Part shown: positions 2,370 through 51,330 of the stretch, piece after piece
Numbering within the stretch: position 1 is the stretch's first letter
Layout: each line of letters starts with the position of its first letter
Source: an uncultured Dehalococcoidales bacterium
GTDB taxonomy: Bacteria; Chloroflexota; Dehalococcoidia; Dehalococcoidales; E44-bin46
Assembly (NCBI GenBank): GCA_964354655.1
Contig: CAYHAL010000004.1
Span: 2,841 to 66,840 of the forward strand
Direction: 5' to 3'
DNA length: 64,000 nt
Position numbers and translations under genes: made by a program
The notes under the pieces: model-generated
Told to the model about the DNA's origin: nothing
The model's database searches: none
The model's input: the letters and a program-made list of their open reading frames with translations, nothing else

Positions 2370-2411
2370 TTCGTAAACCGCTGGGCGTCGGTTCGAATCC
2401 GACCGCTGGCT
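2370..2411 (+). pseudogene. tRNA-Thr(CGU) 3' half: anticodon loop, 3' anticodon stem, variable loop, T arm, 3' acceptor strand
   Basis: Sequence is ttcgtaa-accgc-tgggc-gtcgg-ttcgaat-ccgac-cgctggc-t, with a perfect T arm (GTCGG/CCGAC). There is no matching 5' half nearby. The exact complement partner is at 51294-51330 on the minus strand. Confidence 0.85.
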
Positions 2412-2495
2412 GTATATATCTAGGGTAAAGGACACGCTTGAGTGCCCCAGCATCTCACACTAACTATCTTGGGGTGGATACCGGCCAGATTTTGA

Positions 2496-2921
2496 CTACA
2501 GGCTTTCTCGTGCTCCGGATCGCCAAACCTTGCACACAATCCAGTACTCAAAACTTGATTCTCCGGTGAGTTCCTTGACTTTCTTACGAAAAGCGCGAGC
2601 CCATTTTGGTGATGTAAGCTCGCGATAGGTCTTCCATCTCTCCCTACCCGCAACCTTTCGAGTGCGGTCGGCTATCGCCTCGATTTCCCATTGTGCCCGA
2701 AAGCCCTCCTGCCAGCTCTTACAGCTTATTGCGACAACCCTGCAAGGAGGTGGCACAAGGGGATTAAGTCCGATGACATCAATATCGCTGTAAACACCGT
2801 CCTCCTTGCCTTTCCACTCTGGGTCACTTTCTGAGGGGCGATATTTTATATTAGTCCGAGTGAAATAACCACATAGGTTCAGGTAGTCGGCTGCTATTTG
2901 TTCAAGAATATCTTCTTTCAT
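2496..2921 (-). CDS. hypothetical protein (141 aa; weak resemblance to a PD-(D/E)xK-type nuclease core, D-I-D..S-C-K)
   Basis: Clean ORF in an AT-richer stretch next to the tRNA half. I recognise no family; the nuclease-like idea rests only on SDIDVIG...VAISCK spacing. Confidence 0.55.
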   Translation of the reverse strand: MKEDILEQIAADYLNLCGYFTRTNIKYRPSESDPEWKGKEDGVYSDIDVIGLNPLVPPPCRVVAISCKSWQEGFRAQWEIEAIADRTRKVAGRERWKTYRELTSPKWARAFRKKVKELTGESSFEYWIVCKVWRSGARESL

Positions 2922-3256
2922 AACCTCGATCGATATTATATGATCACACTTTTTCCCCTAGCAAGAGGAGAACCGAAGAGAAAATACGGCATTGAACTTT
3001 ACGTCAACTTGTTACCACTTATGCCACCAAAGGAAATATCGTACAGCATTTATCAATTGACTCCCAATCTGCTTCATGGCAGCCTCTCTTTGAGTGAAGA
3101 TTGTATCGATTTTGCAAATAGAGCCTCCTTAGTGTATAATGCATTCAGTGGTTACAGTTTAGGTTATCGCATACTTAGTTGAATCACTTCAAGGTTAAAC
3201 TTAAGCGTTGGATGACTGGAACTCTAACCAAGTATTAGAAGAGAGGAGGTCATCCA

Positions 3257-3562
3257 ATGAGTTTTCAGGATAAGTCGATCCAATGTTCCGACTGTGGTAC
3301 TACCTTCACTTTCAGTGCTCAGGAGCAAGAGTTTTTCGCATCTAAAGGCTATACTAATGAGCCCAAGCGCTGTCCCTCATGCCGCGAAGCCAGAAAGTCA
3401 ACACGTTATGGCAGTAGTGGCTATAGCCCAAAGCCCCGACGCCAGATGTTCCCCGCAGTGTGCGCTCAGTGTGGTAAAGACACAGAGGTACCGTTTGAGC
3501 CTCGCGAAGGTAGACCGGTGTACTGTAGTGACTGCTACAGTAAGGTCAGAGTGAGCAGATAA
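3257..3562 (+). CDS. zinc-ribbon protein with duplicated CxxC-x17-CxxC modules
   Basis: 101 aa with CSDCG..CPSC and CAQCG..CSDC pairs. A strong SD (gagaggagg) lies 7 nt upstream of the ATG. Confidence 0.8.
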   Translation: MSFQDKSIQCSDCGTTFTFSAQEQEFFASKGYTNEPKRCPSCREARKSTRYGSSGYSPKPRRQMFPAVCAQCGKDTEVPFEPREGRPVYCSDCYSKVRVSR

Positions 3563-3577
3563 CTCTGTTTTGACCCT

Positions 3578-3621
3578 CACGGCATACATGGGCTGGAGTT
3601 ATCTGGTCTATGTATGCCGTG
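3578..3621 (+). other. perfect 12-bp stem hairpin (cacggcatacat / atgtatgccgtg, 20-nt loop) in the leader of the RRM gene
   Basis: Read directly from the sequence. It lies between the zinc-ribbon stop (3562) and the RRM start (3663). No T-run follows, so it is not a classical terminator. Confidence 0.6.
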
Positions 3622-3662
3622 AAAATATGTTAAGGCCACGCAATTTAACGAAAGGGGGCAAT

Positions 3663-3968
3663 ATGAAGATATATGTTGGCAACTTATCTTATGACGTCAC
3701 TGAGGAGGAATTACGCCAAGAATTCAAGGCTTTTGGAGAGGTTGAATCGGTAAATGTCATAACCGACAAGTATAGTGGACGGCCAAAAGGATTTGCGTTT
3801 GTCGAAATGCCCACGGTGTCTGAGGGGCAGGCCGCAATCACGGCTCTCAACGGGAAGACTCTAAAAGACCGGACGCTCACTGTAAATGCAGCACGGCCTC
3901 GCACTGACGACAGAGGTGGCGGGAGAGGCGGCGGATTCGGTGGCAAAGGAAGACAGAGAAGATACTAA
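3663..3968 (+). CDS. glycine/arginine-rich RNA-binding protein (single RRM)
   Basis: RNP-2 IYVGNL and RNP-1 KGFAFVEM, with an RGG tail. The start is moved to M32 of the tracked ORF (SD aaaggggg 5 nt upstream), because the longer ORF would read through the hairpin. Confidence 0.88.
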   Translation: MKIYVGNLSYDVTEEELRQEFKAFGEVESVNVITDKYSGRPKGFAFVEMPTVSEGQAAITALNGKTLKDRTLTVNAARPRTDDRGGGRGGGFGGKGRQRRY

Positions 3969-4207
3969 ACTAGGTTCATCATCCATACTGCTTAATATGT
4001 AGTTAGATTTACCCTAAGAGCCAATTTGAATAAGCAGTAAGCGATTTTTGTGTAACAATCAGCCATGATGTGTGAGGTCAGCAACAGTCAGGCCACTTCA
4101 GCTTAATCCACCTATTGGATTCGTGCGGAGTAACAGGCATAAGAGCTACCTTAATGGCTTTAAGGGTGCGGAGAAGGGCGAGGCACAGCCATGATATGTC
4201 ATCAGGG

Positions 4208-4504
4208 TTAACCCTTAACCCTTGCCGTGAGTTTTACGAGCTCTTCCATAGGGATTGCAGTCCAGGTCTCTGTCTGCGAAGTCCCTCTGGATGTGAATGA
4301 TAATGGCATACCTGCTGCGACTCTCTCGTTGGGCGCCTCATATATGAACATCAGGTCATAACGTCCTAGCAGGCCATAGGCGCTGATAGTCTTGATTCCC
4401 ATTTGCTCGGCTTTCTTTACGCCTTCTTGCCATGTCTTCCCTAGGTCAGAAGCGGTTTTTTGTCCTTCCGATGTCAGTCTGACTAATGTTACGTACGTGG
4501 GCAT
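4208..4504 (-). CDS. GYD-domain protein
   Basis: MPTYVTLVRLTSEG...YGLLGRYDLMFIYEAP matches the GYD family pattern. The start is set at the internal Met with SD aagggggtgaa upstream. Confidence 0.75.
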   Translation of the reverse strand: MPTYVTLVRLTSEGQKTASDLGKTWQEGVKKAEQMGIKTISAYGLLGRYDLMFIYEAPNERVAAGMPLSFTSRGTSQTETWTAIPMEELVKLTARVKG

Positions 4505-4600
4505 CGATTCACCCCCTTTTCGGCTGTGCCTCACCCCGAGTCTTCCCAGTGCTCCTGTTCGCATGCCGCAACTTGACTTTAGGCTTTATTCTTAGCCTTG

Positions 4601-4795
4601 TCAATGGCTTGAAAAAACCGCTGTGAGTTTTACCAAAGCTTTGTAAACCGTTTCAGAAATATCTAAACCAACTAGTCGCGCAACACTATATTCAAGGAGT
4701 TTTTCACCAACCATACCATTACCTGCACCAACATCGAGGATACGTAATTCCGAGAAAATTGCTAAATGAGGAATTGGCTTTTCCGTCGTGTTTAA
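4601..4795 (-). pseudogene. class I SAM-dependent methyltransferase fragment
   Basis: The minus-strand translation ..ELRILDVGAGNGMVGEKLL..LVGLDISE.. carries MTase motif I and post-I. It has no start codon and ends about 65 aa in. Confidence 0.6.
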
Positions 4796-4977
4796 GGCGA
4801 CCCTATTCTAGGCGAATGTTTAGGCCTTAAAGATTCTGACACCAAAGCTGCCTAGCAATTTCAAACAACGTTTTTGGTGTAAAAGAAGTTCGGCGAAACC
4901 GAATTTGCAAGGAGCAATGCGTGGTTTTCTACGTACCGTTAAGTGAAGTCCTATTGTGAAATTGTTATGTTTGCCGC

Positions 4978-5286
4978 TTACCAAGAACGCCGCCCACCAC
5001 CTCCATAATCTCCAGATGGCCTGCCACCACCTCGACCGCCTTCGGGACGAGGACGAGCCTCACTAACGGTAAGCGTCCTTTCTTTTATCTGCTTGCCGTT
5101 AAGACCGCTGATGGCGGCCTGGGCTTCAGCTTTGGTGGGCATCTCCACAAATCCGAATCCCCTAGGGTGGCCAGTATACCTGTCCTTGATGATGGTTACT
5201 GATGTAACCTGCCCGAAAGCATTAAATGCTTCCTGCAATTCCTGCTCTGTGATCTCGGGCGATAGATTGCCAACATAAATATTCAT
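4978..5286 (-). CDS. glycine/arginine-rich RNA-binding protein (single RRM), paralog of 3663-3968
   Basis: MNIYVGNL (RNP-2) and RGFGFVEM (RNP-1), with a GGRGGG tail. The start is at the internal Met, preceded by ggaggaaggag. Confidence 0.88.
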   Translation of the reverse strand: MNIYVGNLSPEITEQELQEAFNAFGQVTSVTIIKDRYTGHPRGFGFVEMPTKAEAQAAISGLNGKQIKERTLTVSEARPRPEGGRGGGRPSGDYGGGGRRSW

Positions 5287-5480
5287 AACTACACTCCTTC
5301 CTCCGTCTAAAGTATACAGGGGAATGGGATGACTTGCAAGCAAGCGTTGCGAGGTCAGTAGTGAGACACCTACATGGCTAGCAGATCTCTGTGCCACAAG
5401 GAATGGACTCTCCGCTAGGACGAGTCAACAATCCGCCCTGTTGTGCATATTGAACAAACTAAGCTTTCGTCTAGTACTTC

Positions 5481-8210
5481 TTACTGAGTAGCTACTGCCA
5501 GCCGTGCGGCACGGCGTGCATCCACTCTACGGATAACCAGTTTTCCTAGCTCTAGAACGCCAAAAATAGTTGCCGAAGCTAGCACCACGATTGTCCAGTC
5601 AATTAAGCCGAGGGGGTAGGTATGGAAGGTCTTCTGGAGGAAGGGAAAATAGAGTAAGGGTAGGGTCATACCAAGCGAAACTAGGACTGCGGCAATTAGC
5701 CACTTGTTCTTCAACATGCCAATCTTGAGTATGGAAAGTCGGTCAGAGCGGAAGTTGAAGCTCTTGAAGAATTGAATAATAATCAGCGTCATAAAGACAA
5801 GGCACTGGGCTTCAATGAGGCTTTTCCCGTTACCTAGCGCCCAGGAGAAAATGCCGAGGTTGACAATTGCACTCCAGATACCCCCAAGAACCATGAGGGC
5901 AACAACTGGGCGGGTGAAGATGGTCTGGTTACGGGGGCGGGGCTTACGCTTCATGATATCCGGTGCTGCCGGGTCAACAGCAAGAGCAATCGCCGGTAAG
6001 CCATCAGTCGCTAAATTTACCCACAGAATCTGGATAGCAATCAGGGGCAGAGCACCGCCAGTGCCTATAAATGTGCCGAAGAGTATAGCTCCAGCCATAA
6101 CCAGTACCTCACCCAGGTTGGAGGAGAGGAGATACATCAGGTATTTCTTGATGTTGTCAAAAACCCCCCTCCCTTCCTCTACGGCGGCGACAATGGAGGC
6201 AAAGTTATCGTCGGTGAGCACCATATCAGCGGCTTCCTTACTGACATCGGTGCCGGTGATACCCATGGCCACGCCGATATCGGCTTTCTTCAGAGCCGGG
6301 GCGTCGTTAACCCCGTCTCCGGTCATCGCCACGACGTGCCCTCTCTTGGTGAGGGCTTCTACCACCCGCAGCTTATGAGCCGGGGAGACACGGGCATAGA
6401 CCTCAATCTCCTCGACAATCTTCTCAAATTGCTCATCACTTAGAGAGTCCAGCTCCGTCCCGGTTAGCGCCCTACCGCCTTTCAGTAGTCCGAGTTCTTT
6501 AGCGACGGCTATGGCGGTGAGCTTGTGGTCGCCGGTAATCATCACCGACTTTATGCCGGCGCCCTCGCAGACCTTGATGGCAGCTTTGGCTTCCTCCCGC
6601 GGTGGGTCAATCATCCCCATCAGTCCCACAAAGACCATTTCTTGGTCGAAGGCTTCACCCGGCTGGGGGATTGGCTTATAGGCCAGCCCTAGAACCCGCA
6701 GCCCATCGCTGGCCATCTCTTGAGCCGTGGCGAGAATCTCCTCGCGCCGGCTGGCGGTTAAATCCTGCTGGCTATCGTTCTCGTAGATGTAGCGGGAGCG
6801 CTCCAGGATTACCTCGGGGGCGCCTTTGGAATAGGCAACATCACCTCTCGGGGTTTTGTGCACTGTGGTCATCATCTTTGCTTCTGAGGAGAAGGGAATT
6901 TCATTAATGCGGGGGTATTCGTTGTTCTCTTTCTCCCGGTCAATGCCTGCCTTGGCGGCGACCACCACGAGCGCCCCCTCGGTTGGGTCGCCCTTTATTT
7001 CCCAGCGGTTATTTGCCGTAACCAGCCGGGCATCATTACACAGGCCACCGATGCGTAAGAGGGTCTCCAGATGGGGGTCCTTACTTACTTCGTAGGGTGC
7101 ACCGTTAAGGAAGAAGCCCCCCTTCGGCTCATAGCCGATACCGCCCACCTCGAAGAACTTACCGTTGGTGTAGATTCTCTGCACTGTCATCTGGTCCTGG
7201 GTCAGGGTGCCGGTCTTATCCGAGCAGATAACGGTAGTGCAGCCCAGGGTTTCCCCCGCAGGCAGCTTTCTAATCAGGGCGTTGCGCTTGACCATGCGCC
7301 GCACAGCAAGGGCCAGGCTGATGACCACTACCGCTGGCAGGGCTTCAGGGACGGCGGCTACCGCCAAGCTCACACCCCAGATGAGCATTCCCAGTACCGG
7401 GTGACCGTGCGATATCCCTATGCCGGCTAATATAAAACAGAGGACTAGCGCACCAATGGCAATCCACTTTCCCATTTTGTCAAGGTTAACCTGGAGTGGG
7501 GTCTTCTCCTCCTTGACCTCCTGAAGCAGGGTGGCAATCTTGCCGAATTCGGTGTTCATGCCGGTGTCAGTGACCACGGCCATGCCCCGACCATAGACTG
7601 CCGCCGTGCCCATATATACCATGTTCTTCCGGTCACCGATGGGCAATTCCTCAGATAACAGGGAGGTTATCTTATGCACCGGGTTCGATTCTCCAGTGAG
7701 CGAGGCTTCGCTCACCTTCAGGTTCATGGCTTCAATCAGACGGCTGTCGGCGGGAATCTGGTCACCGGTATGGAGCACCACGATATCTCCAGGCACGAGC
7801 GCCTGGGCTTCCACCTCCACCTCTTCGCCGTCCCTGATGACGGTCGCTCTGGGCGCTGCCATTCGTTTCAGGGCTTCCATTGCCCTTTCGGCGCGATACT
7901 CCTGGATAAAGCCTAGTCCAGCAGCAAAAAAGACAATTGCCAGGATGGTAACGGCATCAGCCACCTCACCCAGGACTGCCGAGAGAATTACGGCTACAAG
8001 CAGAATAATGATGAGGAAGTTCTTGAACTGCTCTAAGAAAATGGCCCAGGGCTTGACCTTGTGCTTCTCGACAAGCTCATTAGGGCCAAATCTGATTAGG
8101 CGACGTTTAGCTTCTTCACTACTCAGACCGCCGCGGGCTGAGTCTAAGGAGTTAAGCACCTTATCAACTTCCAGATTATGCCAGAGCGATATTTTTTGAT
8201 TCTGTGTCAT
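5481..8210 (-). CDS. cation-transporting P-type ATPase (type II, Ca2+/Mg2+-like)
   Basis: 909 aa with DKTGTLT, TGES, MITGDH and [11 protein letters not shown] motifs and about 10 predicted TM segments. Confidence 0.92.
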
Positions 8211-8262
8211 ATCAGTCTTCGTGATTACTAAGTTGGGTAACTATCATTTAATCTCACCACTA

Positions 8263-9414: not shown

Positions 9415-9431
9415 TAGAAAGCTCTTACGCT

Positions 9432-9463
9432 AATAAGTAGGCTACTGTGCTAGCCTACTTATT
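9432..9463. other. perfect 13-bp hairpin (aataagtaggcta / tagcctacttatt) between the gamma-like and beta subunit genes
   Basis: Read directly. It overlaps the stop codon of the small upstream ORF and lies 18 nt upstream of the oadB-like start. Confidence 0.6.
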
Positions 9464-9592
9464 GTCCTTCTCTTTCTTGAACGGGAATAATCTGATTAAA
9501 AGACGAATCACCAGGGTCAGCACAAAAAGCGTAGTAATCGTGACTGCCATCCCCATACCGGTCATGGTCAGGCCAAAGGCTAAGTCTCTCAA
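9455..9592 (-). CDS. small membrane protein, OadG-like decarboxylase gamma subunit candidate (45 aa; not in ORF track)
   Basis: Minus strand reads TTG-RDLAFGLTMTGMGMAVTITTLFVLTLVIRLLIRLFPFKKEKDNK, with SD gagga 5 nt upstream. It has one TM helix and the GMG..V..F..L pattern of OadG-type subunits. It sits directly upstream of the beta subunit. An ATG at 9565 is an alternative start. Confidence 0.55.
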   Translation of the reverse strand: MRDLAFGLTMTGMGMAVTITTLFVLTLVIRLLIRLFPFKKEKDNK

Positions 9593-9742
9593 CTTTTATC
9601 CTCGATATCCTTCTATAACTCTAACTAAGCTTCCTCTTTTGGTGCCTCGGTTTACTCCTAAATTCACTATATACTTGTTACATATACGTAGTCAAGAATT
9701 GTTACAACTAGATTGCCGAACCGGGCGCTAATAAGTGCAGCT

Positions 9743-10267: not shown

Positions 10268-10500
10268 GATGTTAGCCACCTCCTTTCCTGTAGTACATAT
10301 ATCTATCTGTCGGCTGATTTGACAAAAAGGCGCCCTCACTCCAACCGAGGAGTCTCAGCAATGCTCCCTCAAGGGTGCCTTTGGTCACGCCTCAAATCGT
10401 AGTTTAATGAGGCTTTGCTGTCAAGGAATACAAAAAAGTTCAGGCTAAGCTTGTGTCCGGAGGAGTGCTCATCAAGGTCAGTTTGGTGGCCTGGGTCAAG

Positions 10501-10618: not shown

Positions 10619-10620
10619 AT

Positions 10621-10706
10621 GCCGAAGTGGCGGAATGGCAGACGCGCTACGTTCAGGGCGTAGTGCTCGTAAGGGCGTGGGAGTTCAAATCTCCCCTTCG
10701 GCACCA
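10621..10706 (+). tRNA. tRNA-Leu(CAG), CCA encoded
   Basis: Acceptor gccgaag/cttcggc, anticodon loop ttCAGgg, long variable arm, T arm gggag-ttcaaat-ctccc, terminal acca. Confidence 0.93.
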
Positions 10707-10714
10707 ATACTTAG

Positions 10715-10788
10715 GCGCTTGTAGCTCAGTAGGATAGAGCGCAGCCCTGCGGAGGCTGAGGTCGTGGGTTCAAGACCCGCCAAGCGCG
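10715..10788 (+). tRNA. tRNA-Arg(GCG)
   Basis: Acceptor gcgcttg/caagcgc, D arm gctc..gagc, anticodon stem cagcc/ggctg with loop ctGCGga, T arm gtggg-ttcaaga-cccgc. Confidence 0.88.
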
Positions 10789-10795
10789 CATTTAT

Positions 10796-10869
10796 GGGCG
10801 GTTAGCTCAGACGGTTAGAGCGTCTGTCTTACACACAGGAGGTCAGAGGTTCAAGTCCTCTACCGCCCA
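10796..10869 (+). tRNA. tRNA-Val(TAC)
   Basis: Acceptor gggcggt/accgccc, anticodon loop ctTACac, T arm agagg-ttcaagt-cctct. Confidence 0.92.
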
Positions 10870-11160
10870 CTATAGTGTACGGTAGACAGAACTCCCGCTT
10901 TTTCTTCAGATAGTCCTGTTGGCGGCAATGGCATAGTATAGGTTAGCACAACGTCGTCGCCCACTACTTTAACTTCCTTAATGAAGCTGCGGATAAAAGC
11001 TCTTCTCTCCGGTAGGGAACTCTCGTTGAGCAAGTTGCGTAGATCACTAACGTATTCTGCCACTACTTCAGGGCTAGCCAACTCAACTCTTCTTTCAGAC
11101 AATAAGTTCTCAATTTCGGCTTTTCTAATTCGCAACTTCTCTGGAGCCGTCCGTAATGTA
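10860..11160 (-). pseudogene. C-terminal remnant of a large serine recombinase-type integrase, stop codon inside tRNA-Val
   Basis: Only about 95 aa remain (..RRAFIRSFIKEVKVVGDDVVLTY..). This resembles the C-terminal tail of recombinase-family integrases. There is no catalytic N-terminal domain upstream. The last 3 codons and the stop overlap the tRNA-Val 3' acceptor strand. Confidence 0.45.
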
Positions 11161-11666
11161 TGGCGGGGGAGGGGGGAGGGGGCACCTCCCTACATTCGGA
11201 CCGGCCTTTATTCTGAGCTGCGTCTTCCACGAGCGAAACCTCTACGATATCTGCTGCACAAGAGATACCAGCAGTTAGCTGCACTCGTGCCCAGCGGCTA
11301 GGGGGTATTATCTGGGCGAAGAGGCCTGTTTTTGCTGGGTAACAATCACACTTTCCGATGGATTGTGTAGCTTCAAAGGCACCGGATTGTTGGGTGGAGG
11401 GTCTGAAATATTACTTTTGCTAGCTCCAACGAGTCTATCTAAGCGACCGTTGCTGTCCGGTCGAATCAGATTTCCTACGTAGAGTAAAAACTCGACACAC
11501 TCTTAAATTACTGGTTGTATATCTTCACCAAGGCAACTTTCCGTCTTTGTTGACTTTTTAAATAGTTAGGTCTTAAATATTAGTGTACCGCAGCCTCATT
11601 TTGACAGACTTAGCCCAATAGTCCTAATCTCACTAATGATGTGCTGTCGACACGAAGGATAAGGGT

Positions 11667-16221: not shown

Positions 16222-17033
16222 GTGAGACGTGTTTGTGAGGTTCTTAGTGTCTCGGAGAGGCGGGCATGCAAAGTTCTGGGACAGTGTAGAACTACCCAGC
16301 GGTACAGTTCAGGTATTGGCAATGAGGAAGTTAAGTTGATGGCTCGGATTATTGAATTAGCGACTCAATATGGCAGGTATGGATATCGAAGGATAACAGC
16401 TCTGTTGAAGAGAGAGGGCTTCAAGGTAAATCACAAGAAGGTTGAACGAATCTGGAGGAGTGAAGGATTGAAGGTGCCGCAGAAACAGCCGAAGAGGAGA
16501 AAACTATGGCTTACTGACGACTCTTGTATCAGGCTCAGGCCTGAGTACAAAGACTATGTCTGGATCTACCATTTTGTGACTGCCAGGACATCTGATGGGA
16601 GAGCTTTTCGGATACTGACTATTATTGATGAATACACCCGCGAGTGTCTGGCAATACTGGTTGATCGTCGCATCAGCTCACAGGATGTTATCTATCGGAT
16701 CTTTAACCTGTTTGTCTTCAGAGGCATACCAGAGCATACCCGCTTGGATAATAGCCCTGAGTTTACGGGTAAAGCGATACGAATTTGGTTAAATCATCTT
16801 GGAGTAAAGACGTTATTCATAGAACCGGGGAGCCTCTGGGAGAACGGGTACATAGAGTTATTCAACGGAAAGCTAGAGATGAACTGCTTAACCGGGAGAT
16901 ATTCACTACACGGCTAAAGGCTCAGATATTGATAGATGAGTGGCGGAAGAAGTGCAATTAAGTCCGGCCGCATAGTGCTCTGCATTATCGACCACCTGCT
17001 CCAGAAGCAATCATACCGGTGACACTAACTTAA
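16222..17033 (+). pseudogene. IS3-family transposase OrfB (integrase core), frameshifted near the 3' end
   Basis: rve-type blocks ..IDEYTRECLA.., DNSPEF, PGSLWENGYIELFNGKL. The conserved tail ELLNREIF..RPHSALHYRPPAPE continues in another frame and contains a further stop. Confidence 0.8.
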
Positions 17034-20335: not shown

Positions 20336-20369
20336 TGTAAGGACAAAATTATTAAGGAGGATGAGCAAA

Positions 20370-21233
20370 ATGAGGCAAATAGCGAAAAAGACTATCCTCG
20401 ACTTTTTGGAAATGAAGCGGAGGGGAGACAAGATGACCTTTCTTACCGCTTACGACTTTCATATAGCGTCCATTCAGGAGCAAATAGGCGTCGATATGAT
20501 ACTGGTCGGGGATTCCGTAGGCATGGCAGTGTATGGCTATTCTGGGGGAACCATACCGGTGACGATGGATCAGATGATTTATCACGCGGAAGCAGTCCGC
20601 CGGGGTGCCCCCAACACATTTATCATTGGCGATATGCCCTTTCTCTCTTACCACGAATCGGCGGCCGACGCGGTGCATAATGCCGGCCGCTTTTATAAGG
20701 AGGCTGGCGTGGATGCCATCAAGCTAGAGGGAGGAAAAAGAGTAACCGCGCAGATACGGGCAATTGTTGATGCGGGGATGGTGGTGATGGGCCACATTGG
20801 GCTGACACCGCAAAGCACGGCAGCGCTCGGAGGCTTTAAAACTCAAGGAAACACCGCCGAGACAGCAATGGCACTGCTCGAGGATGCGAAAGCTGTTCAA
20901 GAGGCAGGTGCCGCTCTTACCTTGGTCGAGGCAGTACCAGCAGAGACGGGTAAGCTGATCACGAAAACCCTTCGTATACCGGTGATTGGCATCGGTGCCG
21001 GAGCTGACTGTGATGGGCAAGCTCAAGTATACACTGATGCGATTGGTCTCTTCGAACTCTTCACACCAAAATTCGTAAAGAAATATGCAAATGTAGCCGA
21101 AGTAATAAGAGAGGCCCTCAAAGAATGGAGTAAGGAGGTTCGTGAAGGTACGTTCCCGGCTTCAGAACATTGCTACAAGATGAAAGCGGGTGAGGCAGAA
21201 AAACTAGAGGAGATGGTAAAGCAGATCCTTTAG
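20370..21233 (+). CDS. panB: 3-methyl-2-oxobutanoate hydroxymethyltransferase (ketopantoate hydroxymethyltransferase), copy 1
   Basis: LTAYD..ILVGDS.GM.VYGY..T.PVTMD..HAEAVRRGA..GDMPF.SY..KLEGG blocks. The start is set at the second ATG (9 nt after SD aaggagg); the ATG at 20361 is an alternative. Confidence 0.9.
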   Translation: MRQIAKKTILDFLEMKRRGDKMTFLTAYDFHIASIQEQIGVDMILVGDSVGMAVYGYSGGTIPVTMDQMIYHAEAVRRGAPNTFIIGDMPFLSYHESAADAVHNAGRFYKEAGVDAIKLEGGKRVTAQIRAIVDAGMVVMGHIGLTPQSTAALGGFKTQGNTAETAMALLEDAKAVQEAGAALTLVEAVPAETGKLITKTLRIPVIGIGAGADCDGQAQVYTDAIGLFELFTPKFVKKYANVAEVIREALKEWSKEVREGTFPASEHCYKMKAGEAEKLEEMVKQIL

Positions 21234-28232: not shown

Positions 28233-29435
28233 ATGATGCCACGAACGTCTTTTAGGAAAGGGAAGTCTCTCGATGAGATGTATGAGATTGACAATGCTAA
28301 ATATAAAAGGTTCGATTCATCAAAAGAGGGTTTTGTAACGCTTACGGAAAAGAAGACTGGTAAACCTGTACATAGCATCCAAGACATCGTGAATTTTCTC
28401 ATCGGAGGCTTTGTGCCGGTTATGATGAAAGACATTCAGGGGAACACATCCGGCAAATCGCGGACAGACCACGCTCTTCAGTTTGGAGCCGCTGCAGTAA
28501 ATTACATCTTAGGCATGTACGGCGACCAGAATGCTAACGAGCAATTTCTAAAGTGGAATTCCTTGTTTGTACCAGAAGACCTAAATAAATGGCGGTCAGA
28601 GGCTGACCCGGACAAGCTTACCTCCCTCATAAAAGACGCTGCTAAGCTGTATGGCGCATGCCTTGTTGCCACTACGGAGCTTGACAGCAGATGGGTCTAT
28701 GAGGGAGATGTACATAAACGCTTCATCTTTGATGATGTTGAACAGCCGATGGAGAAAGGCGATACCCTTGTAATTCCCAACTCAATAAATAGAGCGGTAG
28801 TAATGGCTGTTGAAATGAATAAGGAGCTTATTTTACAATCACCCGGAGCAGGTGCAACTGCGGCTACCGATCTTGGATATGCCATGATGGGCTTCATATC
28901 TATATCCTTAGCCGAATGCATACGGGCTCTCGGTTATAACGCGATACCATGCATGAATGATACTGCTCTAAGCATACCGTTAGCGATAAGCGCTGGGCTT
29001 GGTCAACTTGGTAGACATGGTCTTCTAATAACACCTGAATATGGTTCTTGCATTCGCTTGTGCAAGGTTTTGACAGATATGCCCCTTAATGTCGATAAGC
29101 CTATTGATTTTAGACAAACAGAATTTTGCGACCAATGTTTGGTTTGTGCCAAAGAGTGTCCCGCCGATGCTATAAGCTTTAAAGATAGAACAATGAGCGG
29201 ATACAATGAGAACAATAATCCTGGTGTTAAGAAGTGGTATATACAAGCGGAAAAATGCCTCCAATTTTGGCTGGATAATGGCACGCCTTGTGCTGTCTGC
29301 ATAGCTGTATGCCCCTTTACGGAGGGCTTTGCCTCCACAGCAAGACAGTGCTTACAATGCGAGAGATGTGTTGCCCCTGATTGTCCACTACAATCGATGC
29401 CTATACAAGACCGAAGCAAGGACACCTATAAGTGA
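28233..29435 (+). CDS. reductive dehalogenase-superfamily protein (RdhA/QueG-like), cytoplasmic type without TAT signal
   Basis: EIDNAKYKRFD resembles the RdhA mature N-terminal block. Iron-sulfur motifs are CDQCLVCAKECP and C-x10-CAVCIAVCP, plus an extra CLQCERCVAPDCP. There is no RRxFxK leader, and no small membrane-anchor gene lies adjacent. Confidence 0.75.
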   Translation: MMPRTSFRKGKSLDEMYEIDNAKYKRFDSSKEGFVTLTEKKTGKPVHSIQDIVNFLIGGFVPVMMKDIQGNTSGKSRTDHALQFGAAAVNYILGMYGDQNANEQFLKWNSLFVPEDLNKWRSEADPDKLTSLIKDAAKLYGACLVATTELDSRWVYEGDVHKRFIFDDVEQPMEKGDTLVIPNSINRAVVMAVEMNKELILQSPGAGATAATDLGYAMMGFISISLAECIRALGYNAIPCMNDTALSIPLAISAGLGQLGRHGLLITPEYGSCIRLCKVLTDMPLNVDKPIDFRQTEFCDQCLVCAKECPADAISFKDRTMSGYNENNNPGVKKWYIQAEKCLQFWLDNGTPCAVCIAVCPFTEGFASTARQCLQCERCVAPDCPLQSMPIQDRSKDTYK

Positions 29436-34890: not shown

Positions 34891-34891
34891 G

Positions 34892-43305: not shown

Positions 43306-43313
43306 CTTTTCTG

Positions 43314-43730: not shown

Positions 43731-43751
43731 CAAGATAAGGTACATTCGAGC

Positions 43752-44622
43752 TTATCTAAGGGTCAACCAGCGATGCGTGACAAGTTTGGTTGCCTCTTCG
43801 CGGGTCATCTGATGATAAAGCTCCCTTATTTTCTCCTTCGCCCAATAAAACCCCTTGAGACCGGGATACCTGTCCAGCAGCTCATCTACCCTCTGCCTTT
43901 TCTCCTCACTCAGCTTGTCCCTGCCAATCAAGAATACCTTCTTGGGTATCTGGGCCTTCCGCTTCCGGTATACATCTTGCTCGATTCTTCTGGCTTCGTC
44001 CATCCTTTTATTGGAATCAGCAATTACGTGGAATGGGTCAACGACTACCTTTGCTAGGGGAAACATCTTCTCTGCTAGCTTCCTTAAGGCCTCCTTCATG
44101 TCGATACAGACTTCTTTGACTTTATCTCCGGCTATCTTGGCCAGGAATTCCTCTAAGGTGGCTATACGATCGTCCCTAAGAATTCCCAACACCCTCCCCT
44201 GCTTAACCTCAGTTATAGTCTACACCATCTCCTGATGCCTGAAACTATGCTCGTCGATGCCGAGGTGCACATTGTCCTCTCCCTGTATGAAGCCCAGTGC
44301 TTCCTCGTCTATCTCCCTCTCCATAAGACGGCGTAGCGTGCCGTAGCCCACTCCCAGCTCCTTGGTCACCTGGCTGAAGCTTCTGTCTCTGAGCCGCCAC
44401 AATGCCTCAGTCTGTTTGGTAAGCCTCGACCGGTCGCGGACCAATTCCTTGCCCTCGGTGAAGGTCAAGGTAGGCCTTTTTGCCGTTCGTCCAAGTGTGA
44501 AGTACGTGTCGTGGGTCACACATACCATGCCCATACAGCTTGGCCGCGCCACAATAGGGGCATTTCTCCCGGCCTCCGTTAATTGTAATCTTCACCACCA
44601 CCCTCTCATCACTCCCCACCAC
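43752..44622 (-). pseudogene. ISL3-family transposase, multiply frameshifted and 3'-truncated
   Basis: There are three overlapping minus-strand ORF pieces. One is an N-terminal zinc finger (CPYCG), one an HTH piece (..FSQVTKELGVGYGTLRR..), and one a DDE piece with VDPFHVI. No single frame is intact. Confidence 0.75.
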
Positions 44623-44687
44623 CTCCCCAGCCCTGCAGTCTTTAAGTCCAAGTAGAGTTGTGGTACAATTTTCGAGGTGATTAACAT

Positions 44688-46778: not shown

Positions 46779-46923
46779 TCAGCTAATCTTATTAGATACG
46801 TCGAAATACGAATAGCGTCTCGTGTCTCAACAAAAGCTTGATTTGTTCAGCGTAAGACGACGACCCACGGGGCTAGAACGCAGAACTTCTCGCCAAGGAA
46901 TCCGTGGACGACCGTAGCTTCTC

Positions 46924-47106
46924 TTATCCAGGCTCTTTGTCTCGTTTTGCCTTCATCTCATGGTAGCACCGCACCATCCGCTCAAACTGCTCATCAAGCC
47001 ACTGCCGAGCATCCAGTTCCTCCACACTTTTCGGCTCAAAATCTTTTCGCACCTTCTTATCGTGTCGCTTGCGTCTCTTTGGTCGTCCTTTGGTATCCTC
47101 TTTCAT
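46924..47106 (-). CDS. hypothetical basic protein (60 aa)
   Basis: Lys/Arg-rich ORF. It is in the same frame as the small ORF upstream, separated by a single TAA and 16 sense codons. Confidence 0.35.
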   Translation of the reverse strand: MKEDTKGRPKRRKRHDKKVRKDFEPKSVEELDARQWLDEQFERMVRCYHEMKAKRDKEPG

Positions 47107-47154
47107 CCTAGCCTGCTTTGCCCTTTGTGCCGCTAGCTCATTACGGCTTATCGC

Positions 47155-47292
47155 TTAATACACCCGCTTTACCCAGCGTATCCCTGTCTCCCCATCTTCC
47201 ATTATGACGTAGCAAGAGTCCTGAAAAGGATGCTCCTCGACTACCTTTCCCCGTTTTAGCATTTCCACAGAGACGGGATAGGTGGTTTTCAT
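47155..47292 (-). CDS. hypothetical small protein (45 aa; not in ORF track)
   Basis: Minus strand reads MKTTYPVSVEMLKRGKVVEEHPFQDSCYVIMEDGETGIRWVKRVY*. No family recognised. Confidence 0.3.
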   Translation of the reverse strand: MKTTYPVSVEMLKRGKVVEEHPFQDSCYVIMEDGETGIRWVKRVY

Positions 47293-47418
47293 TTCAGGGT
47301 CATCAACACGCCAGCCTTTGGTTACTCTGTAACGGTCTCAAAGTCAATCCGAACTATTAGCTGCTTTCCGGGCGAGCCACTGTGGTTATCAATAGTTGTT
47401 CCACACTTAAGTAGGCTT

Positions 47419-47763
47419 TTGACTAGACCAAATGTCACAAGAATAATCCTGCCGTCAGTCTTTATCGTCTCTATTACCTCCTATATGCTGAGTTGGCTCA
47501 GTAGCTTATCTAAGCTTCAAGGTTCCATGTTCTTGCTAGCCTTCTGGTTTGGTTTTGCCTGGATTGTAGTATATGCAATAATACTGGTAAGCCGAGCTAT
47601 CCGACCAGTAGGTATTATAGTATCTCTTGCACTATTGATAGTTGGAATTCTGTATCTTGCTAATGGCCTCATTGCCCAAGGCACGGGCTTGTTAGTCTTA
47701 GGTGCAATACTAATGTTGGCAGCTACGAACAGAATAAGGGTCTGGAACCAGATTCACATGTAG
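47419..47763 (+). CDS. hypothetical membrane protein (114 aa, 3-4 TM)
   Basis: Hydrophobic ORF with a non-ATG start as tracked; no family recognised. Confidence 0.5.
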   Translation: MTRPNVTRIILPSVFIVSITSYMLSWLSSLSKLQGSMFLLAFWFGFAWIVVYAIILVSRAIRPVGIIVSLALLIVGILYLANGLIAQGTGLLVLGAILMLAATNRIRVWNQIHM

Positions 47764-48090
47764 TAACCATCCTTAGTAAATGTGAGCACCGTCCAGTTGT
47801 ATCACCTTTTTCTCACTTCCGTAGAAGTAGCTCTCCGTGATGTAACAATCAGCCATAAAGTGTTGCGGATAGCATGAGAGCCCACTAGTGGAAAGTAAAC
47901 ACCCTAGAAAAAGTTCTACCTTTTATCCTGCACGGTCTGCAAAGACTAATATAGACTATTCCTATCGAAGAGTTCTCAAAATAATCAGTATGAAGTCCCC
48001 GTGAGGTCACCTGCATCAAAAAGCGCCATAACTAAATAACTTCATAACTTCACAGGGGCCTTATCAATTAGCATAAGTGCTTGAGGCAAG

Positions 48091-48948
48091 TCATACTAAT
48101 TTTTTCTTCACTAATTCCATCATTTTCTCAAATTCGCCTTCGATCATTCCGTAGCAATGTTCTTTCTGAGGGAATTTTGATTCCTTAACCTCTTTAGCAT
48201 AGTCTTCAAAGGCCTTAACCATATTTTCAGCAAGGTTCGCATATTTTTTAACGAATTTTGGTGTAAACGCTTCAAATACGCCTAACATGTCGTGCATGAT
48301 AAGCACTTGTCCATCAACGTAAGGGCCAGCACCTATGCCATAAACTGGGATTTTCAGGTGCTCTGTAATAAACTTACCAACCTCGGGCGGTATTGCCTCC
48401 AGGAGTAAAAATGACGCCCCCGCCTCCTGAACGGCTCTGGCGTCAAGGATAAGTTCATATGCGCTTTCTGCCGTACGTCCCTGAGCTTTGAAACCACCAA
48501 GCTGCCCAGAACTCTGCGGTGTTAAACCAATATGACCGCAGACAACCATTCCCGCATCCACTATCGCCTTTATCATTTTTACAACGCGGCGTCCACCTTC
48601 GAGCTTGACGGCATCCACGCCAGCCTCCTTATAGAACCTTCCGGCATTTCTAACTGCATCTTCAGGTGTAGTTTGATAAGATAAGAATGGCATGTCACCC
48701 ATCACAAAGATGTTTGGAGCTCCCCGACGTACAGCTTCAGTATGTACTATGCATTGGTCCATAGTTACAGGCACAGTGCCTCCAGCGTATCCGTAAACTA
48801 CCATGCCCATGGAGTCTCCCACCAAAATCATCTCTATACCAGCCTGCTCCATCAATCGAGCGGTAGGATTATCATAACATGTTAGCCAGACAACCTTTTC
48901 ACCGCTCTTTTTCATATTTTGAAAATCTAGTACAGTTTTCTTTGCCAT
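48091..48948 (-). CDS. panB: 3-methyl-2-oxobutanoate hydroxymethyltransferase, copy 2
   Basis: 285 aa, collinear with copy 1 along the full length (same GDS.GM.VYGY, VTMDQ, AVRRGAPN, GDMPFLSY, KLEGG, TPKFVKKYAN blocks). Confidence 0.9.
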   Translation of the reverse strand: MAKKTVLDFQNMKKSGEKVVWLTCYDNPTARLMEQAGIEMILVGDSMGMVVYGYAGGTVPVTMDQCIVHTEAVRRGAPNIFVMGDMPFLSYQTTPEDAVRNAGRFYKEAGVDAVKLEGGRRVVKMIKAIVDAGMVVCGHIGLTPQSSGQLGGFKAQGRTAESAYELILDARAVQEAGASFLLLEAIPPEVGKFITEHLKIPVYGIGAGPYVDGQVLIMHDMLGVFEAFTPKFVKKYANLAENMVKAFEDYAKEVKESKFPQKEHCYGMIEGEFEKMMELVKKKLV

Positions 48949-48972
48949 TTTTGACCTCCTTTATATGTATTT

Positions 48973-49908
48973 TTATTTTGGCATCGGGATTTTCAGATCT
49001 GCTGCCCCTTGCTTTGACAACTTTAAGTCGGGATGGATCTCACTAATCAATTCAATGATATTCTTAGCTAGGCGAATCTTCTCTCTCCCTAACCGAGCCA
49101 GCTCTTCTTCTGATGAGCCCCAAGGTAGGAATGTGCCTATGTGTTGACCCTGCTCTAGCTTGAAGTAGCAGGGAGAAGCAACTCTTGCAATTTCTGGGGT
49201 CTCATAGATGCGGTTGAACCCGCCCATAGAAGCCCATAGCGTGATGTGAATGTCAAAGGGAATGTTTGCTACGCTTCTTATTGCTGCTAACATCGGCAGT
49301 GTAAGGTCAGCCACTGGATTGCAGGTTCCTGCCCCGAGGGATTCTAGCAACTTAATCCCTGGAGGGTTAGCATGTCCAGCGAATATCGAGACTTTAAAAA
49401 GTACATCCTCGGGCAAGTCACCATTCCTTTTCATTTGAGTGAGCAGGGATAAAAGCCCTTCATCCCAAACCAGAAACGCCCTAAAACCAATATCAATGCA
49501 TCTCTGGATGTCCATTATGCAGTGTTTGACTGCATCCATTCCCCTGTGTCTGAACCCGGAGATAGCCCCCTCAGGGGTAGCCACCTGCCGACCGATATAC
49601 CAGCTCGGTCTTGGCCCCGGAGTTATGACAACTTCTACTTTAGCTTCATTAGCTATTCCAGCGAATTCTCTCAATTCCTCCCGCGTAAGGAGGGTGGCAC
49701 CACGTACCACAGAGATGGCTCGGTGGAAGGGAACCCCTTGCTTTTGAGCTTCATCAATCGTTGCTTCTAGGACTTTTACCGTCTCTATAGGTGAAATCTC
49801 AATCCTATAATTGGCGCCATCGGGGAAGGTTTTCGGAGATGTAGGTAATTCATACAGGTCTCCTTTAGGCATTCCCAGTTTTTCCAGAGCTTTTGCGATT
49901 CTATCCAT
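48973..49908 (-). CDS. hypothetical protein (311 aa, alternating beta/alpha pattern suggests a TIM-barrel-like fold; family not recognised)
   Basis: Clean ORF immediately upstream of, and co-oriented with, panB copy 2. The start is set at MDRIAK, with SD aaaggagg upstream. Confidence 0.6.
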   Translation of the reverse strand: MDRIAKALEKLGMPKGDLYELPTSPKTFPDGANYRIEISPIETVKVLEATIDEAQKQGVPFHRAISVVRGATLLTREELREFAGIANEAKVEVVITPGPRPSWYIGRQVATPEGAISGFRHRGMDAVKHCIMDIQRCIDIGFRAFLVWDEGLLSLLTQMKRNGDLPEDVLFKVSIFAGHANPPGIKLLESLGAGTCNPVADLTLPMLAAIRSVANIPFDIHITLWASMGGFNRIYETPEIARVASPCYFKLEQGQHIGTFLPWGSSEEELARLGREKIRLAKNIIELISEIHPDLKLSKQGAADLKIPMPK

Positions 49909-50111
49909 TAATTTATTCCTCCTTTTCGGTTGATTTAATGATTTATCTTCGACCACTGTTTTAATATTATGCATAAAATTAAAGCACTATGATTATACAA
50001 CAAACTGGCTTAGAAATCTGCGAGAAATAGGATGTCATCCTCGTCTTTTCGAGTTGCATATTCAGCCAGAAAGTTCGATGGTTCTAAACAAGCATAAGTC
50101 TCACATTACTA

Positions 50112-50495
50112 TTAAAGCCGTCTTACTTCTTCCAGCCACCTGTTGAGCTCATTGTAAAACTTCATTGATTTTTCATCGTAATAACGGGCTTGTCTAAAGG
50201 ACGCTTCGGAGGGATGATAAAGCTGTTCTTCGCCGCAAGGATTTATCGGCAGTAGGGTATTGCCAACGCCATCCCACGTCCTGTTCACCGGCAGGCCCAA
50301 TTTCTCCAGTGCCTGATCTAGTGTTGCATCGACCAGAACGAGTTCTCCATCTATATCTACCAGGTAAGCAAGATGGTAATTTATTGAGAGCTCTTTAGCC
50401 AGCCTCCCTAAGTGAGGTGGATAGTCGATTTTAACCTCGTCCCATCTGAAGGGGAAGACCGCGTATAATATCAGCAGCCCTAGCCTTTCATACAT
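50112..50495 (-). pseudogene. possible transglutaminase-like cysteine peptidase C-terminal fragment
   Basis: ..INYHLAYLVDIDGELVLVDAT.. resembles the His/Asp half of the transglutaminase-core triad. The Cys-bearing N-terminal part is absent. The ORF abuts another truncated gene head to head. Confidence 0.3.
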
Positions 50496-50967
50496 ATGGC
50501 AAAGAAGAAAGTGCTTTGCCAGGAAAGGGGGATTCAGTTCGAGTTTGGTCCCCTAGAAAATCTAGTTGTAAAAGGAGATAAGCTAAAGCTCAAGCAACTG
50601 TTCCTCAACCTTCTGGATAATGCCGTCAGATATACTCCGAGCGGTGGAAGTATATCAGCTTCCGTTGTCAGGAAAGGAGAAACCGCGGTAGTGGCAATCA
50701 GAGATTCAGGTATTGGCATCCCCGAAGAGCATATACCGCATATCTTTGAGCGCTTCTATCGGGTGGATAAGGCACCGCTCCCGGGCTGAAGGAGGTGCAG
50801 GGCTGGGCCTCTCAATTCGTCAGCATATCGCTGAGATGCACAGCGGTAGAATTGAAGTTGAAAGCCAGGTAGGGAGAGGGAGTACCTTTTCAGTAATACT
50901 ACCCATTCTTCAACAGGGAGGTTTCCGTTCTCATACTGGGATAATCACGTCCAGCAGTCAAACCTAA
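50496..50967 (+). pseudogene. sensor histidine kinase fragment (HATPase_c only), frameshifted
   Basis: N box LFLNLLDNAVRYTP, G1 IRDSGIGIP, then [10 protein letters not shown]. One extra base near 50775 shifts the frame to [27 protein letters not shown]. The HisKA and sensor parts are missing. Confidence 0.8.
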
Positions 50968-51035
50968 TTCGCCTTCGATACCCAGTACGTAAATCATCGA
51001 GTTTCTTGAGGAGTAACTCCCAACAAAACATCGGA

Positions 51036-51058
51036 AAGTGTGATGGTGTCACACTTTT
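51036..51058 (+). terminator. hairpin aagtgtga-tggtg-tcacactt followed by TT
   Basis: 8-bp perfect stem with a T-run (cacactttta), downstream of the kinase remnant. Confidence 0.35.
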
Positions 51059-51166
51059 ACGGTTGCAATGTCTCAGGCCTTTACCTCCTAATCAGGGAAT
51101 AGCCGGCACGGCCCACACCCGTATAGGCTACCACACGGCAGGCGATTGATAAAGGGGGCACAAAAG

Positions 51167-51180
51167 TTGGCGACAAACTG
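51167..51180 (+). repeat. 14-mer ttggcgacaaactg, partner of 2243-2256
   Basis: 13/14 identical to the copy at 2243-2256 and at the identical distance (113 nt) from the breakpoint core. The 10-mer cacaaaagtt also repeats at 51159-51168 and 51240-51249. Confidence 0.5.
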
Positions 51181-51293
51181 AAAAGGACAGGATTTCACCA
51201 AAAGGCACTTTAGCCTCAAAACGGGATTTTAGCAACTGACACAAAAGTTCTATTTTGTATCTAACAGCACCCAGCAGCATACCTGCCCTAGAA

Positions 51294-51330
51294 TTACGAA
51301 ACCGCTGCTCTACCTCTGAGCTACGCTGGC
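51294..51330 (-). pseudogene. tRNA-Thr(CGU) 5' half: acceptor 5' strand, D arm, 5' anticodon stem, anticodon loop
   Basis: Minus strand reads gccagcg-ta-gctc-agaggta-gagc-a-gcggt-ttcgtaa, followed by unrelated sequence. It pairs perfectly (7/7 acceptor, 5/5 anticodon stem) with the 3' half at 2370-2411. Confidence 0.85.

Follow-up and report, generated by a model that had tools for sequence, protein, structure and literature searches.

Two fragments of a tRNA-Thr(CGU) gene, one its 5′ half and the other its 3′ half, lie 48.9 kb apart on opposite strands of a 64,000-nucleotide stretch of DNA (here called the window and numbered from its first nucleotide; positions 2,841 to 66,840 of contig CAYHAL010000004.1, GenBank assembly GCA_964354655.1) from an uncultured Dehalococcoidales bacterium. 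Both halves are probably displaced tRNA-gene fragments at hybrid attachment (att) junctions of decayed genomic islands. Displaced tDNA fragments at the junctions of tyrosine-integrase islands are already known, and the two halves do not represent a new kind of split gene. This reading draws on the conserved arms that flank both halves, on the recurrence of one of these arms beside the anticodon loops of other tRNA genes, and on tyrosine-integrase sequences that adjoin the arms or the tRNA halves, including a remnant next to the 3′ half.

The presence of two halves, reported in a first-pass annotation of the window, is confirmed. The 5′ part (GCCAGCG...GCGGT followed by TTCGTAA) reads on the minus strand at 51330-51294 and the 3′ part (TTCGTAA followed by ACCGC...CGCTGGCT) on the plus strand at 2370-2411, in both cases letter for letter as given there. 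Each half occurs once in the window when up to 3 mismatches are allowed, and matches were found in 0 of 100 shuffled sequences. ARAGORN and Rfam recovered no tRNA-Thr from the uninverted window, the only tRNA genes detected being those for tRNA-Leu(CAG), tRNA-Arg(GCG), and tRNA-Val(UAC) at 10621-10870. After inversion of 2377-51293 in silico, ARAGORN called a minus-strand tRNA-Thr(cgt), at ~51258-51331, and folding of the 72-mer made from both halves gave a full cloverleaf, which bears out the claim that the halves together make a tRNA-Thr(CGU). The diagnostic traits of this tRNA are an A in the D loop and a variable loop reading UGGGC; its D-loop variant, CAGAGG, was found in no other Thr-CGU sequence compared.

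The break falls exactly at the anticodon loop, as the first-pass annotation had noted: the 5′ fragment ends and the 3′ fragment begins with the whole 7-nt loop, and the boundary is the same in 41 related loci. The 7-nt duplication corresponds to the crossover core of a tyrosine integrase, and att-type arms stand on both flanks. We refer to the arm that follows the loop of the 5′ half as arm A and to the arm that precedes the loop of the 3′ half as arm B. The two are equal in length and share the same 14-mer, in inverted orientation, 121 to 134 nt from the core; on both arms the iterons are tandem and lie 121 to 146 nt from the core, and those of one arm are inverted relative to those of the other. 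Judged from the sequence, both arms have the attP layout of a tyrosine integrase, with a 7-bp core, a core-proximal motif, and tandem iterons, and the iterons may be the sites bound by the integrase. The arms match the missing tRNA halves over no more than the 7-nt loop and TTCT/AGAA.

Arm A is not confined to the window. Its exact 28-mer (TTAGATACAAANTAGAACTTTTGTGTCA) was found in 43 metagenome contigs (L035-L077), and in 41 of these it stands 29 nt past the loop of a tRNA 5′ half whose 7-nt anticodon loop is complete. Over ~134 nt, arm A is 75 to 95% identical, mostly 80 to 90%, in most of the 43 loci and in a further locus, L017. Across loci the core-proximal motif has the consensus C.GGT[AG]T[GC]CC, and two or three tandem iterons of ~11 bp, belonging to the classes TGTCGCC, TAACGCC, and TTAGC, lie ~121 to 146 nt from the start of the loop. 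The 5′ halves that precede the arm belong to at least 10 tRNAs (Thr CGU; Met CAU; Arg UCU, CCU, and UCG; Leu UAA; Trp CCA; Ser CGA; Phe GAA; Lys CUU), and a matching 3′ half within up to 9 kb was found in 0 of the 41 loci. Most of these 5′ halves retain their native chromosomal upstream contexts (native promoters or upstream tRNAs), which fits the expectation for attL; six Met-CAU contigs have one common context. No gene recurs universally beside arm A. A phage origin was considered and rejected, as the 28-mer had 0 matches in viral contigs. The mirror-image arrangement also recurs: in L061 a mirrored arm with the 28-mer adjoins a 3′ half, and in L043 a Lys-UUU 3′ half adjoins an arm of the same architecture as arm B.

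Three further observations concern the arms. In L057 and L066 the arm is preceded by GGAAAGGCTTTTAAATTTCATTGGTAGCGCATACCGGA, a sequence that folds unlike a standard tRNA 5′ half, and a motif similar to it (TTTAAATTTCATTAAAATCTCA) lies upstream of an MBL hydrolase gene in L012, L014, and L086. The ~150 nt at 51029-51178, which include the last iteron of arm A and, in the subfamily to which the window belongs, extend the arm as far as its terminator-like hairpin, are 100% identical to L076, a locus with an Arg-CCU 5′ half and arm followed by sbcCD, and the sequences are unrelated beyond; the same genome or a very close one probably also has an orphaned Arg CCU 5′ half. Finally, a motif at 11342-11366 on the plus strand of the window (ATCACACTTTCCGATGGATTGTGTAG), ~470 nt downstream of the tRNA-Leu/Arg/Val cluster, resembles, at 88% over 25 nt, the hairpin end (51023-51047) of the extended arm A and is also present in L065 upstream of a Lys-UUU 3′ half. 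It may be another arm remnant.

Tyrosine-integrase sequences adjoin these arms and tRNA genes at several loci. In L075 an integrase of at least 309 aa (PF00589, E=1e-23) lies directly upstream of a 5′ half and arm A, and in L047 a homologous integrase fragment has the same position. L083 carries the C-terminal fragment of a PF00589 integrase whose stop-codon region is an iteron pair, followed by a promoter, an intact tRNA-Arg(UCG), and iterons of the arm B class. In L016 the integrase gene is tail-to-tail with an intact tRNA-Thr beside ribF, in L012 an iteron remnant follows the intact tRNA-Thr, and in L053 homologous integrase sequence lies near tRNA-Arg(CCU). Iterons overlap the stop-codon regions of the integrase genes in L075, L047, L083, and L016, and the 20-nt iteron block at the stop codon in L075 is nearly identical to the distal block of its own arm A. 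A 7-bp core in a symmetric context, arm repeats on both sides, and the 3′ end of an integrase gene at the att site are together what a λ-type att site at a tRNA gene consists of. Site-specific recombination within the loop, a first-pass reading that we find right, is supported also by homologous integrase genes that adjoin the same arms or tRNA halves elsewhere. The first-pass statement that the window holds no intact integrase stands, no intact recombinase of this family being present in the 64 kb; a 29-codon frameshifted remnant does adjoin the 3′ half.

The right junction lies beside ribF (51515-52447). The window comes from a Dehalococcoidia bacterium, and the closest relative of its RibF (89% identity) is encoded on the complete chromosome CP070810 (L012), where ribF has, ~210 bp upstream and on the other strand, a tRNA-Thr(CGU) that is intact and nearly identical; in the window the 5′ half alone occupies this place. 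Since an intact tRNA-Thr(CGU) is also found upstream of ribF in L013-L016 and L018, the 5′ half of the window is at its native locus. Upstream of tRNA-Thr a promoter element, TTTGTG(C/T)TATACT, is conserved; a scan with a consensus promoter did not call the element at 51339-51351 and found no -35 match. The retention of this promoter in relatives makes transcription of the 5′ half plausible, in line with the first-pass suggestion, and a terminator-like hairpin lies ~265 nt downstream. The junction is not unique to the window: L017, from another species (RibF 69% identical), has the same order of ribF, 5′ half, and arm, with ~80% identity to window positions 51293-51176 after the 5′ half and loop, and the upstream flanks of its tRNA are not alignable. 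In L012 an MBL hydrolase gene follows tRNA-Thr. This ancestral 3′ flank is now apart from the tRNA, and the same-sample orthologues of the hydrolase gene (L084-L086), where an intact tRNA-Thr was sought, have no tRNA beside them.

The left junction was reproduced in independent assemblies, namely, a Joint Genome Institute contig (L027, 99.4% identical) and the Logan contigs L028 and L029. From trpA onward, the order is 15 codons of the PALP-453 gene, 620 nt of noncoding DNA, arm B, core, and 3′ half, 29 integrase codons, and a NERD-type nuclease gene cut at 2499. The left side of the window is thus a patchwork of truncated genes, with the 3′ half wedged between the integrase remnant and the truncated nuclease gene. 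In the remnant the codon for the catalytic Tyr abuts the tRNA's 3′ end, and the frame, read on through the 3′ half and core in reverse complement, ends at a TGA (2367-2369) within arm B. It was recognized by tblastn (E=0.012), by BLASTP against the integrase fragment of L047 (48% over 40 aa, E=3e-11), and by a match to positions 143-170 of 172 in PF00589 (E=0.0097, below the curated cut-off). Homologues of the nuclease (ORF141) are ~196 aa long, and the match is confined to residues 1-130; DNA homology to L087 and L088, which are 95% relatives, spans 3000 to 2499 and then ends. The contexts of ORF141 homologues vary (mutS-NERD or restriction endonuclease-NERD), and none has an integrase gene or tRNA-Thr. 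Relatives have trpA followed by the PALP-453 gene, htrA, and ileS, of which the window retains the 15 PALP-453 codons alone. In the noncoding stretch at 1609-2230 there was no convincing open reading frame (ORF), no promoter or terminator call, and no match among the fetched loci other than same-strain contigs; it is possibly island residue. The corresponding region of L083 (TrpA 91% identical) at 3060-4420 has PALP-453 cut after 103 codons, followed by the integrase fragment and tRNA-Arg(UCG). The region downstream of trpA seems to be a recurrent rearrangement hot spot tied to these elements. The features of both junctions are listed in Table 1.

Table 1. Features at the left (trpA) and right (ribF) junctions, in window coordinates
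Feature	Position	Strand	Description
PALP-453 gene, first 15 codons	1564..1608	+	Breakpoint 1608/1609
Noncoding DNA, 620 nt	1609..2230	not assigned	Between trpA-side breakpoint and arm B
Arm B (P-type arm)	2231..2369	+	Two tandem iterons TTTGCCGACA TTTTGCCGACA AAC at 2231-2254; core-proximal motif the mirror image of that in arm A
Crossover core TTCGTAA, left copy	2370..2376	+	
tRNA-Thr(CGU) 3′ fragment	2377..2411	+	Anticodon-stem 3′ strand, variable loop, T arm, acceptor 3′ strand, discriminator
Tyrosine-integrase pseudogene remnant	2412..2498	-	…HPKIVS / EMLGHSSVSFTLDIYS, one frameshift; 29 codons
NERD-type nuclease gene ORF141, 3′-truncated	2499..2921	-	Breakpoint 2498/2499
Histidine-kinase C terminus (HATPase_c), 5′-truncated, frameshifted	50496..50967	+	From ORF translations and HATPase_c annotation on Logan contigs; adjoins outer end of arm A
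Arm A distal extension	51029..51153	-	Terminator-like hairpin 51057-51035; sharp outer boundary at 51029
Arm A (attL P′-type arm)	51154..51293	-	Core-proximal motif AGGTATGC
Arm A iteron region	51180-51154	-	CAGTTTGTCGCCAA CTTTTGTGCC
Arm A invariant palindromic 28-mer	51264-51237	-	TTAGATACAAAATAGAACTTTTGTGTCA
Crossover core, right copy	51294..51300	-	7-nt anticodon loop TTCGTAA
tRNA-Thr(CGU) 5′ fragment	51301..51330	-	Acceptor 5′ strand, D arm, anticodon-stem 5′ strand; native chromosomal place, divergent from ribF
Native tRNA promoter	51339..51351	-	TTTGTGCTATACT, extended -10; from alignment of upstream flanks; kept before intact tRNA-Thr in relatives

We propose that both junctions would stem from islands whose tyrosine integrase crosses over in the 7-bp anticodon loop. 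Two mirror-image configurations cover all loci. In the 5′ type, the attP would consist of the integrase gene running into iterons, the promoter, the 5′ half, the core, arm A, and further iterons, as L075 and L047 suggest. Integration of such an element would orphan the chromosomal 5′ half in a unit of 5′ half, core, and arm A, which would fit most of the 41 loci, and would rebuild the tRNA behind the integrase gene at the other end of the island, with L083 as a possible example. In the 3′ type, which is the classical one, the attP would run from iterons and arm B through the core and a 3′ half, carried by the element, to iterons at the end of a convergent integrase gene. Its integration would yield a rebuilt tRNA tail-to-tail with the integrase gene, as in L016 and, in decayed form, L012, together with a displaced fragment of arm B, core, and 3′ half. 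The right piece of the window (promoter, 5′ half, core, arm A with iterons, and terminator) would then be an attL-type junction of the 5′ type at the native ribF locus, and the left piece a unit of the 3′ type, the mirror image of the right one, embedded in scars. A possible role of the hairpin that closes arm A is to block read-through from the orphaned tRNA promoter into the island. One freshly broken gene need not be the source of both halves: several steps of island insertion, decay, and rearrangement, perhaps with an integrase-mediated inversion between the identical cores among them, would account for the inverted orientation of the halves and their 48.9-kb spacing. Events probably ran in this direction, and a functional tRNA-Thr(CGU) presumably lies elsewhere in the genome. 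For L083, by analogy with phages, short-core integration that leaves the tRNA unrebuilt and is compensated by an element-borne tRNA would also fit.

Several points weigh against an origin as island scars. The 64-kb window contains neither an intact tRNA-Thr(CGU) nor an intact integrase. The intact, same-orientation tRNA copy that would mark the other end of an island was not found in the window, where the fragments are on opposite strands, and no contig holds a complete island from displaced fragment to rebuilt tRNA. The rebuilding step itself would have its basis in L083 and in analogy. At many loci the genes past arm A look like ordinary chromosomal ones (sbcCD, glycosyltransferases) and not like island cargo, and the integrase remnant is short, with a subthreshold Pfam match. 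Finally, the perfect fit of the two halves and the identity of their cores could equally be explained by one recombination event.

An inversion of 2377-51293 was the simplest reading in the first-pass annotation. Spelled out here, it would be a single integrase-mediated event between an intact tRNA-Thr beside ribF and an inverted site of arm B, core, and arm A ~49 kb away near trpA, which would leave the sole copy of the gene truly split. Undoing the inversion in silico restores a perfect tRNA at the place where relatives have tRNA-Thr(CGU), and the identical cores are flanked by arms of the att type. The integrase gene of L016 and the iteron remnant of L012, each after an intact tRNA-Thr, match the remnant by the 3′ half of the window, and integrase-catalyzed chromosomal inversions are reported from Thermococcales (PMC5495485). 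However, the same undoing restores neither the trpA-PALP-453-htrA synteny of relatives nor the adjacency of tRNA and MBL hydrolase gene, and the synteny of both outer flanks would stay broken. A free site of arm B, core, and arm A was seen in 0 of 43 arm-bearing loci. Furthermore, L043 (raw positions ~2600-4400) has a Leu(UAA) 5′ half with arm A 1.4 kb from, and head-to-head with, a Lys(UUU) 3′ half with an arm of the arm B type. This topology is that of the window, yet its halves come from two different tRNAs with differing cores, and the head-to-head layout can therefore arise without core-to-core recombination. The break that assembly graphs show at 51301, described below, suggests a second copy of the 5′ part and also speaks against a sole gene that was split. 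A single inversion is thus possible, not needed by the evidence, and partly contradicted by it, and we think it rather improbable. GC skew was tried as a means of dating an inversion and proved uninformative, as it tracks local gene orientation.

The first-pass annotation had also entertained an element with terminal inverted repeats (TIRs) and a 7-bp target duplication. We rejected an insertion sequence (IS) or TIR element, as the similarity of the termini is limited to TTCT, no IS-like repeats are present at the junctions, and the arms lie 49 kb apart around chromosomal metabolic genes.

All 7 of 7 ribF-bearing Logan contigs begin at 51301, 30 nt from the 5′ end of the tRNA. For contigs built at k=31, a break at this position is what would be expected if the samples hold the 30-nt 5′ part in another context as well, and it suggests a second copy of the tRNA 5′ part there; given the unique D-loop variant, that copy would probably be in the same organism. 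Orientation heterogeneity was rejected as the cause of these contig starts, as two orientations would break at 51294 instead. The Logan contigs on the segment side all stop at 51058, 30 nt into the 150-bp repeat, and no independent contig spanning 51059-51300 was retrieved, including by way of a 50-aa ORF inside arm A. The link of the 5′ half and arm A to the 49-kb segment crosses the ~150-bp exact repeat at 51029-51178. Both junctions could be real and the contig misjoined across this repeat, in which case the distance between the halves and their orientation would be meaningless. The identity of the repeat in L076 (Arg-CCU), the contig breaks at both edges (51058 and 51301), and the missing independent contig would all agree with a misjoin, but paired-end or long reads normally resolve repeats of 150 bp and we saw no positive sign of a chimera, and we regard this explanation as unlikely.

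The same data bear on the first-pass speculation that the segment could be invertible, taken here as a programmed 49-kb switch that would flip to turn tRNA-Thr(CGU) on and off. Identical 7-bp cores in inverted orientation, flanked by recombinase-type sites, are what such a switch would have. However, the only integrase sequence nearby is the frameshifted remnant of 29 codons, so that no functional recombinase is at hand, and its surroundings are decayed. Independent assemblies show the arrangement of the window alone at the left junction, and the ribF contigs start at 51301 and not at 51294, the position that a mixture of two orientations predicts. A switch is therefore very unlikely.

We also asked whether the gene might function in its split state, with halves transcribed apart and joined at the RNA level, in the manner of Nanoarchaeum or of a trans-splicing intron, through pairing of the arms or a ribozyme. 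Orphan 5′ halves of essential tRNAs (Trp, Phe, and Met) are widespread and keep their native promoters, a terminator-like hairpin closes the unit of 5′ half and arm, and the distal 14-mers and the TTCT/AGAA ends of the two arms would be complementary as RNA. Against this, the whole 7-nt loop is present in both halves, which simple joining could not use. Pairing of the arms is no better than chance when compared to shuffled sequences (p ~0.18 for the duplex energy and p ~0.34 for the cofold gain), and RNAalifold on 20 diverse arms gave a single invariant hairpin without compensatory changes. The tandem iterons, like the link to integrase genes, speak instead for a function at the DNA level. A group I or II intron or other ribozyme was likewise rejected, with no relevant Rfam match in the whole window at the gathering score or in both arm regions at E values up to 10. 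Altogether, we find a functional split tRNA scarcely credible.

The arms may have a wider meaning. Arm A represents a common and hitherto unannotated att module in Dehalococcoidia, with at least 10 tRNA targets in both polarities. Tentatively, the arms could mark an undescribed and widespread family of integrative elements in Dehalococcoidia with a modular attP, in which a conserved arm and a single integrase lineage would go with an exchangeable tRNA half, be it the 5′ half together with its promoter or the 3′ half, and the matching 7-bp core. Such elements would have been retargeted to at least 10 tRNA loops in either polarity, and their scattered, identical cores could drive inversions that truly split genes of nonessential isoacceptors, such as tRNA-Thr(CGU) and tRNA-Arg(CCU), and leave promoter-driven RNAs of ~300 nt composed of 5′ half and arm. 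If this idea is true, it would provide a natural case of integrase retargeting through a swapped tRNA-half cassette. For annotation, the window is a warning that tRNA halves of perfect appearance can be island scars, and that a missing tRNA-Thr(CGU) call in such metagenome-assembled genomes need not mean that the tRNA is absent from the cell. The 28-mer can serve as a probe to map island junctions and rearrangement hot spots in the small genomes of Dehalococcoidia, in which island-borne genes such as those for reductive dehalogenases matter.

The 49 kb between the halves hold accessory metabolism genes, an IS3 transposase, and ISL3 fragments, with no other integrase in the segment. The IS3-family transposase ORF (HTH_21 and rve domains) lies at 16222-16917 on the plus strand and the two ISL3 transposase fragments at 43752-44552 on the minus strand. 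Two paralogues of panB (ketopantoate hydroxymethyltransferase) are inverted relative to each other, at 20361-21233 (plus strand) and 48091-48948 (minus strand), and have a 57-nt stretch at 86% identity; this pair is a possible substrate for homologous inversion. A reductive-dehalogenase-like gene at 28233-29435 (plus strand), with a weak dehalogenase domain and with 4Fe-4S domains, adjoins a YcaO gene in the segment. Beyond the right junction, at 60258-61194, a palindromic repeat family (CCTATACTCCCCCTCTCCTT / AAGGAGAGGGGGAGTATAGG) surrounds an ORF at 60344-60922, and similar sequence is found in intergenic regions of L089. These repeats may be an element resembling repetitive extragenic palindromes (REP) or miniature inverted-repeat transposable elements (MITE).

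Among known systems, the window shares with the split tRNAs of Nanoarchaeum equitans and with bacterial group I introns of the anticodon loop a gene interrupted in or beside the loop, with halves far apart. It differs from them in that leader/trailer complementarity does not exceed chance, the whole loop is duplicated, intron or ribozyme signatures are absent, and the flanks have DNA features of the integrase type. The recombining sites in the Thermococcales inversion study were reportedly tRNA-related. In that study the integrase of a mobile element was proposed to catalyze large chromosomal inversions (Cossu et al. 2017; PMC5495485). A mobile-element integrase is a possible cause of a large inversion in the window too, but the Thermococcales case comes from archaea, where the pTN3 integrase and homology segments of ~100 bp or longer are at work, whereas the window shares the 7-bp core only and an inversion is not demonstrated.

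A closer likeness is found in the tRNA-dependent lysogeny of actinobacteriophages, in which integration through a core of 8 to 10 bp, with no rebuilding of the tRNA, was shown experimentally, and in which the loss is compensated by a tRNA borne on the element, whose gene in some cases lies just downstream of int (Guerrero-Bustamante & Hatfull 2024; PMC10865867). Both systems involve a tyrosine integrase and a very short core around the anticodon region (7 nt in the window), an arm-side junction that is not a functional tRNA, and arm-type sites around the core; L083, with a complete tRNA gene just downstream of int, is like phage Gaia. Unlike the phage systems, the window has no element-borne replacement tRNA-Thr, its only tRNAs being Leu CAG, Arg GCG, and Val UAC. 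The hosts here belong to Dehalococcoidia, and the elements cannot be recognized as phages. L075 and L047 suggest that here the element carries a tRNA half in its attP and not a separate tRNA gene.

Finally, the junctions may be compared to the tRNA-gene islands cataloged by Islander, in which attP is anticodon centered in 2083 islands and displaced 5′ tDNA fragments occur in 159 islands versus 3′ fragments in 3760 (PMC4383910). The window differs from these in that 5′ and 3′ fragments of the same tRNA are opposed with no intact gene in 64 kb, an arrangement that the filters of Islander for configuration and orientation would reject, that one conserved arm is common to elements at no fewer than 10 tRNAs, and that the integrase is a remnant. 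It resembles islands with the anticodon-loop ("A") sublocation in its crossover within the loop, its symmetric anticodon stem as the context of the core, its displaced fragments at the junctions, the putative integrase gene end beside the att site, and the arm-type repeats around the core.

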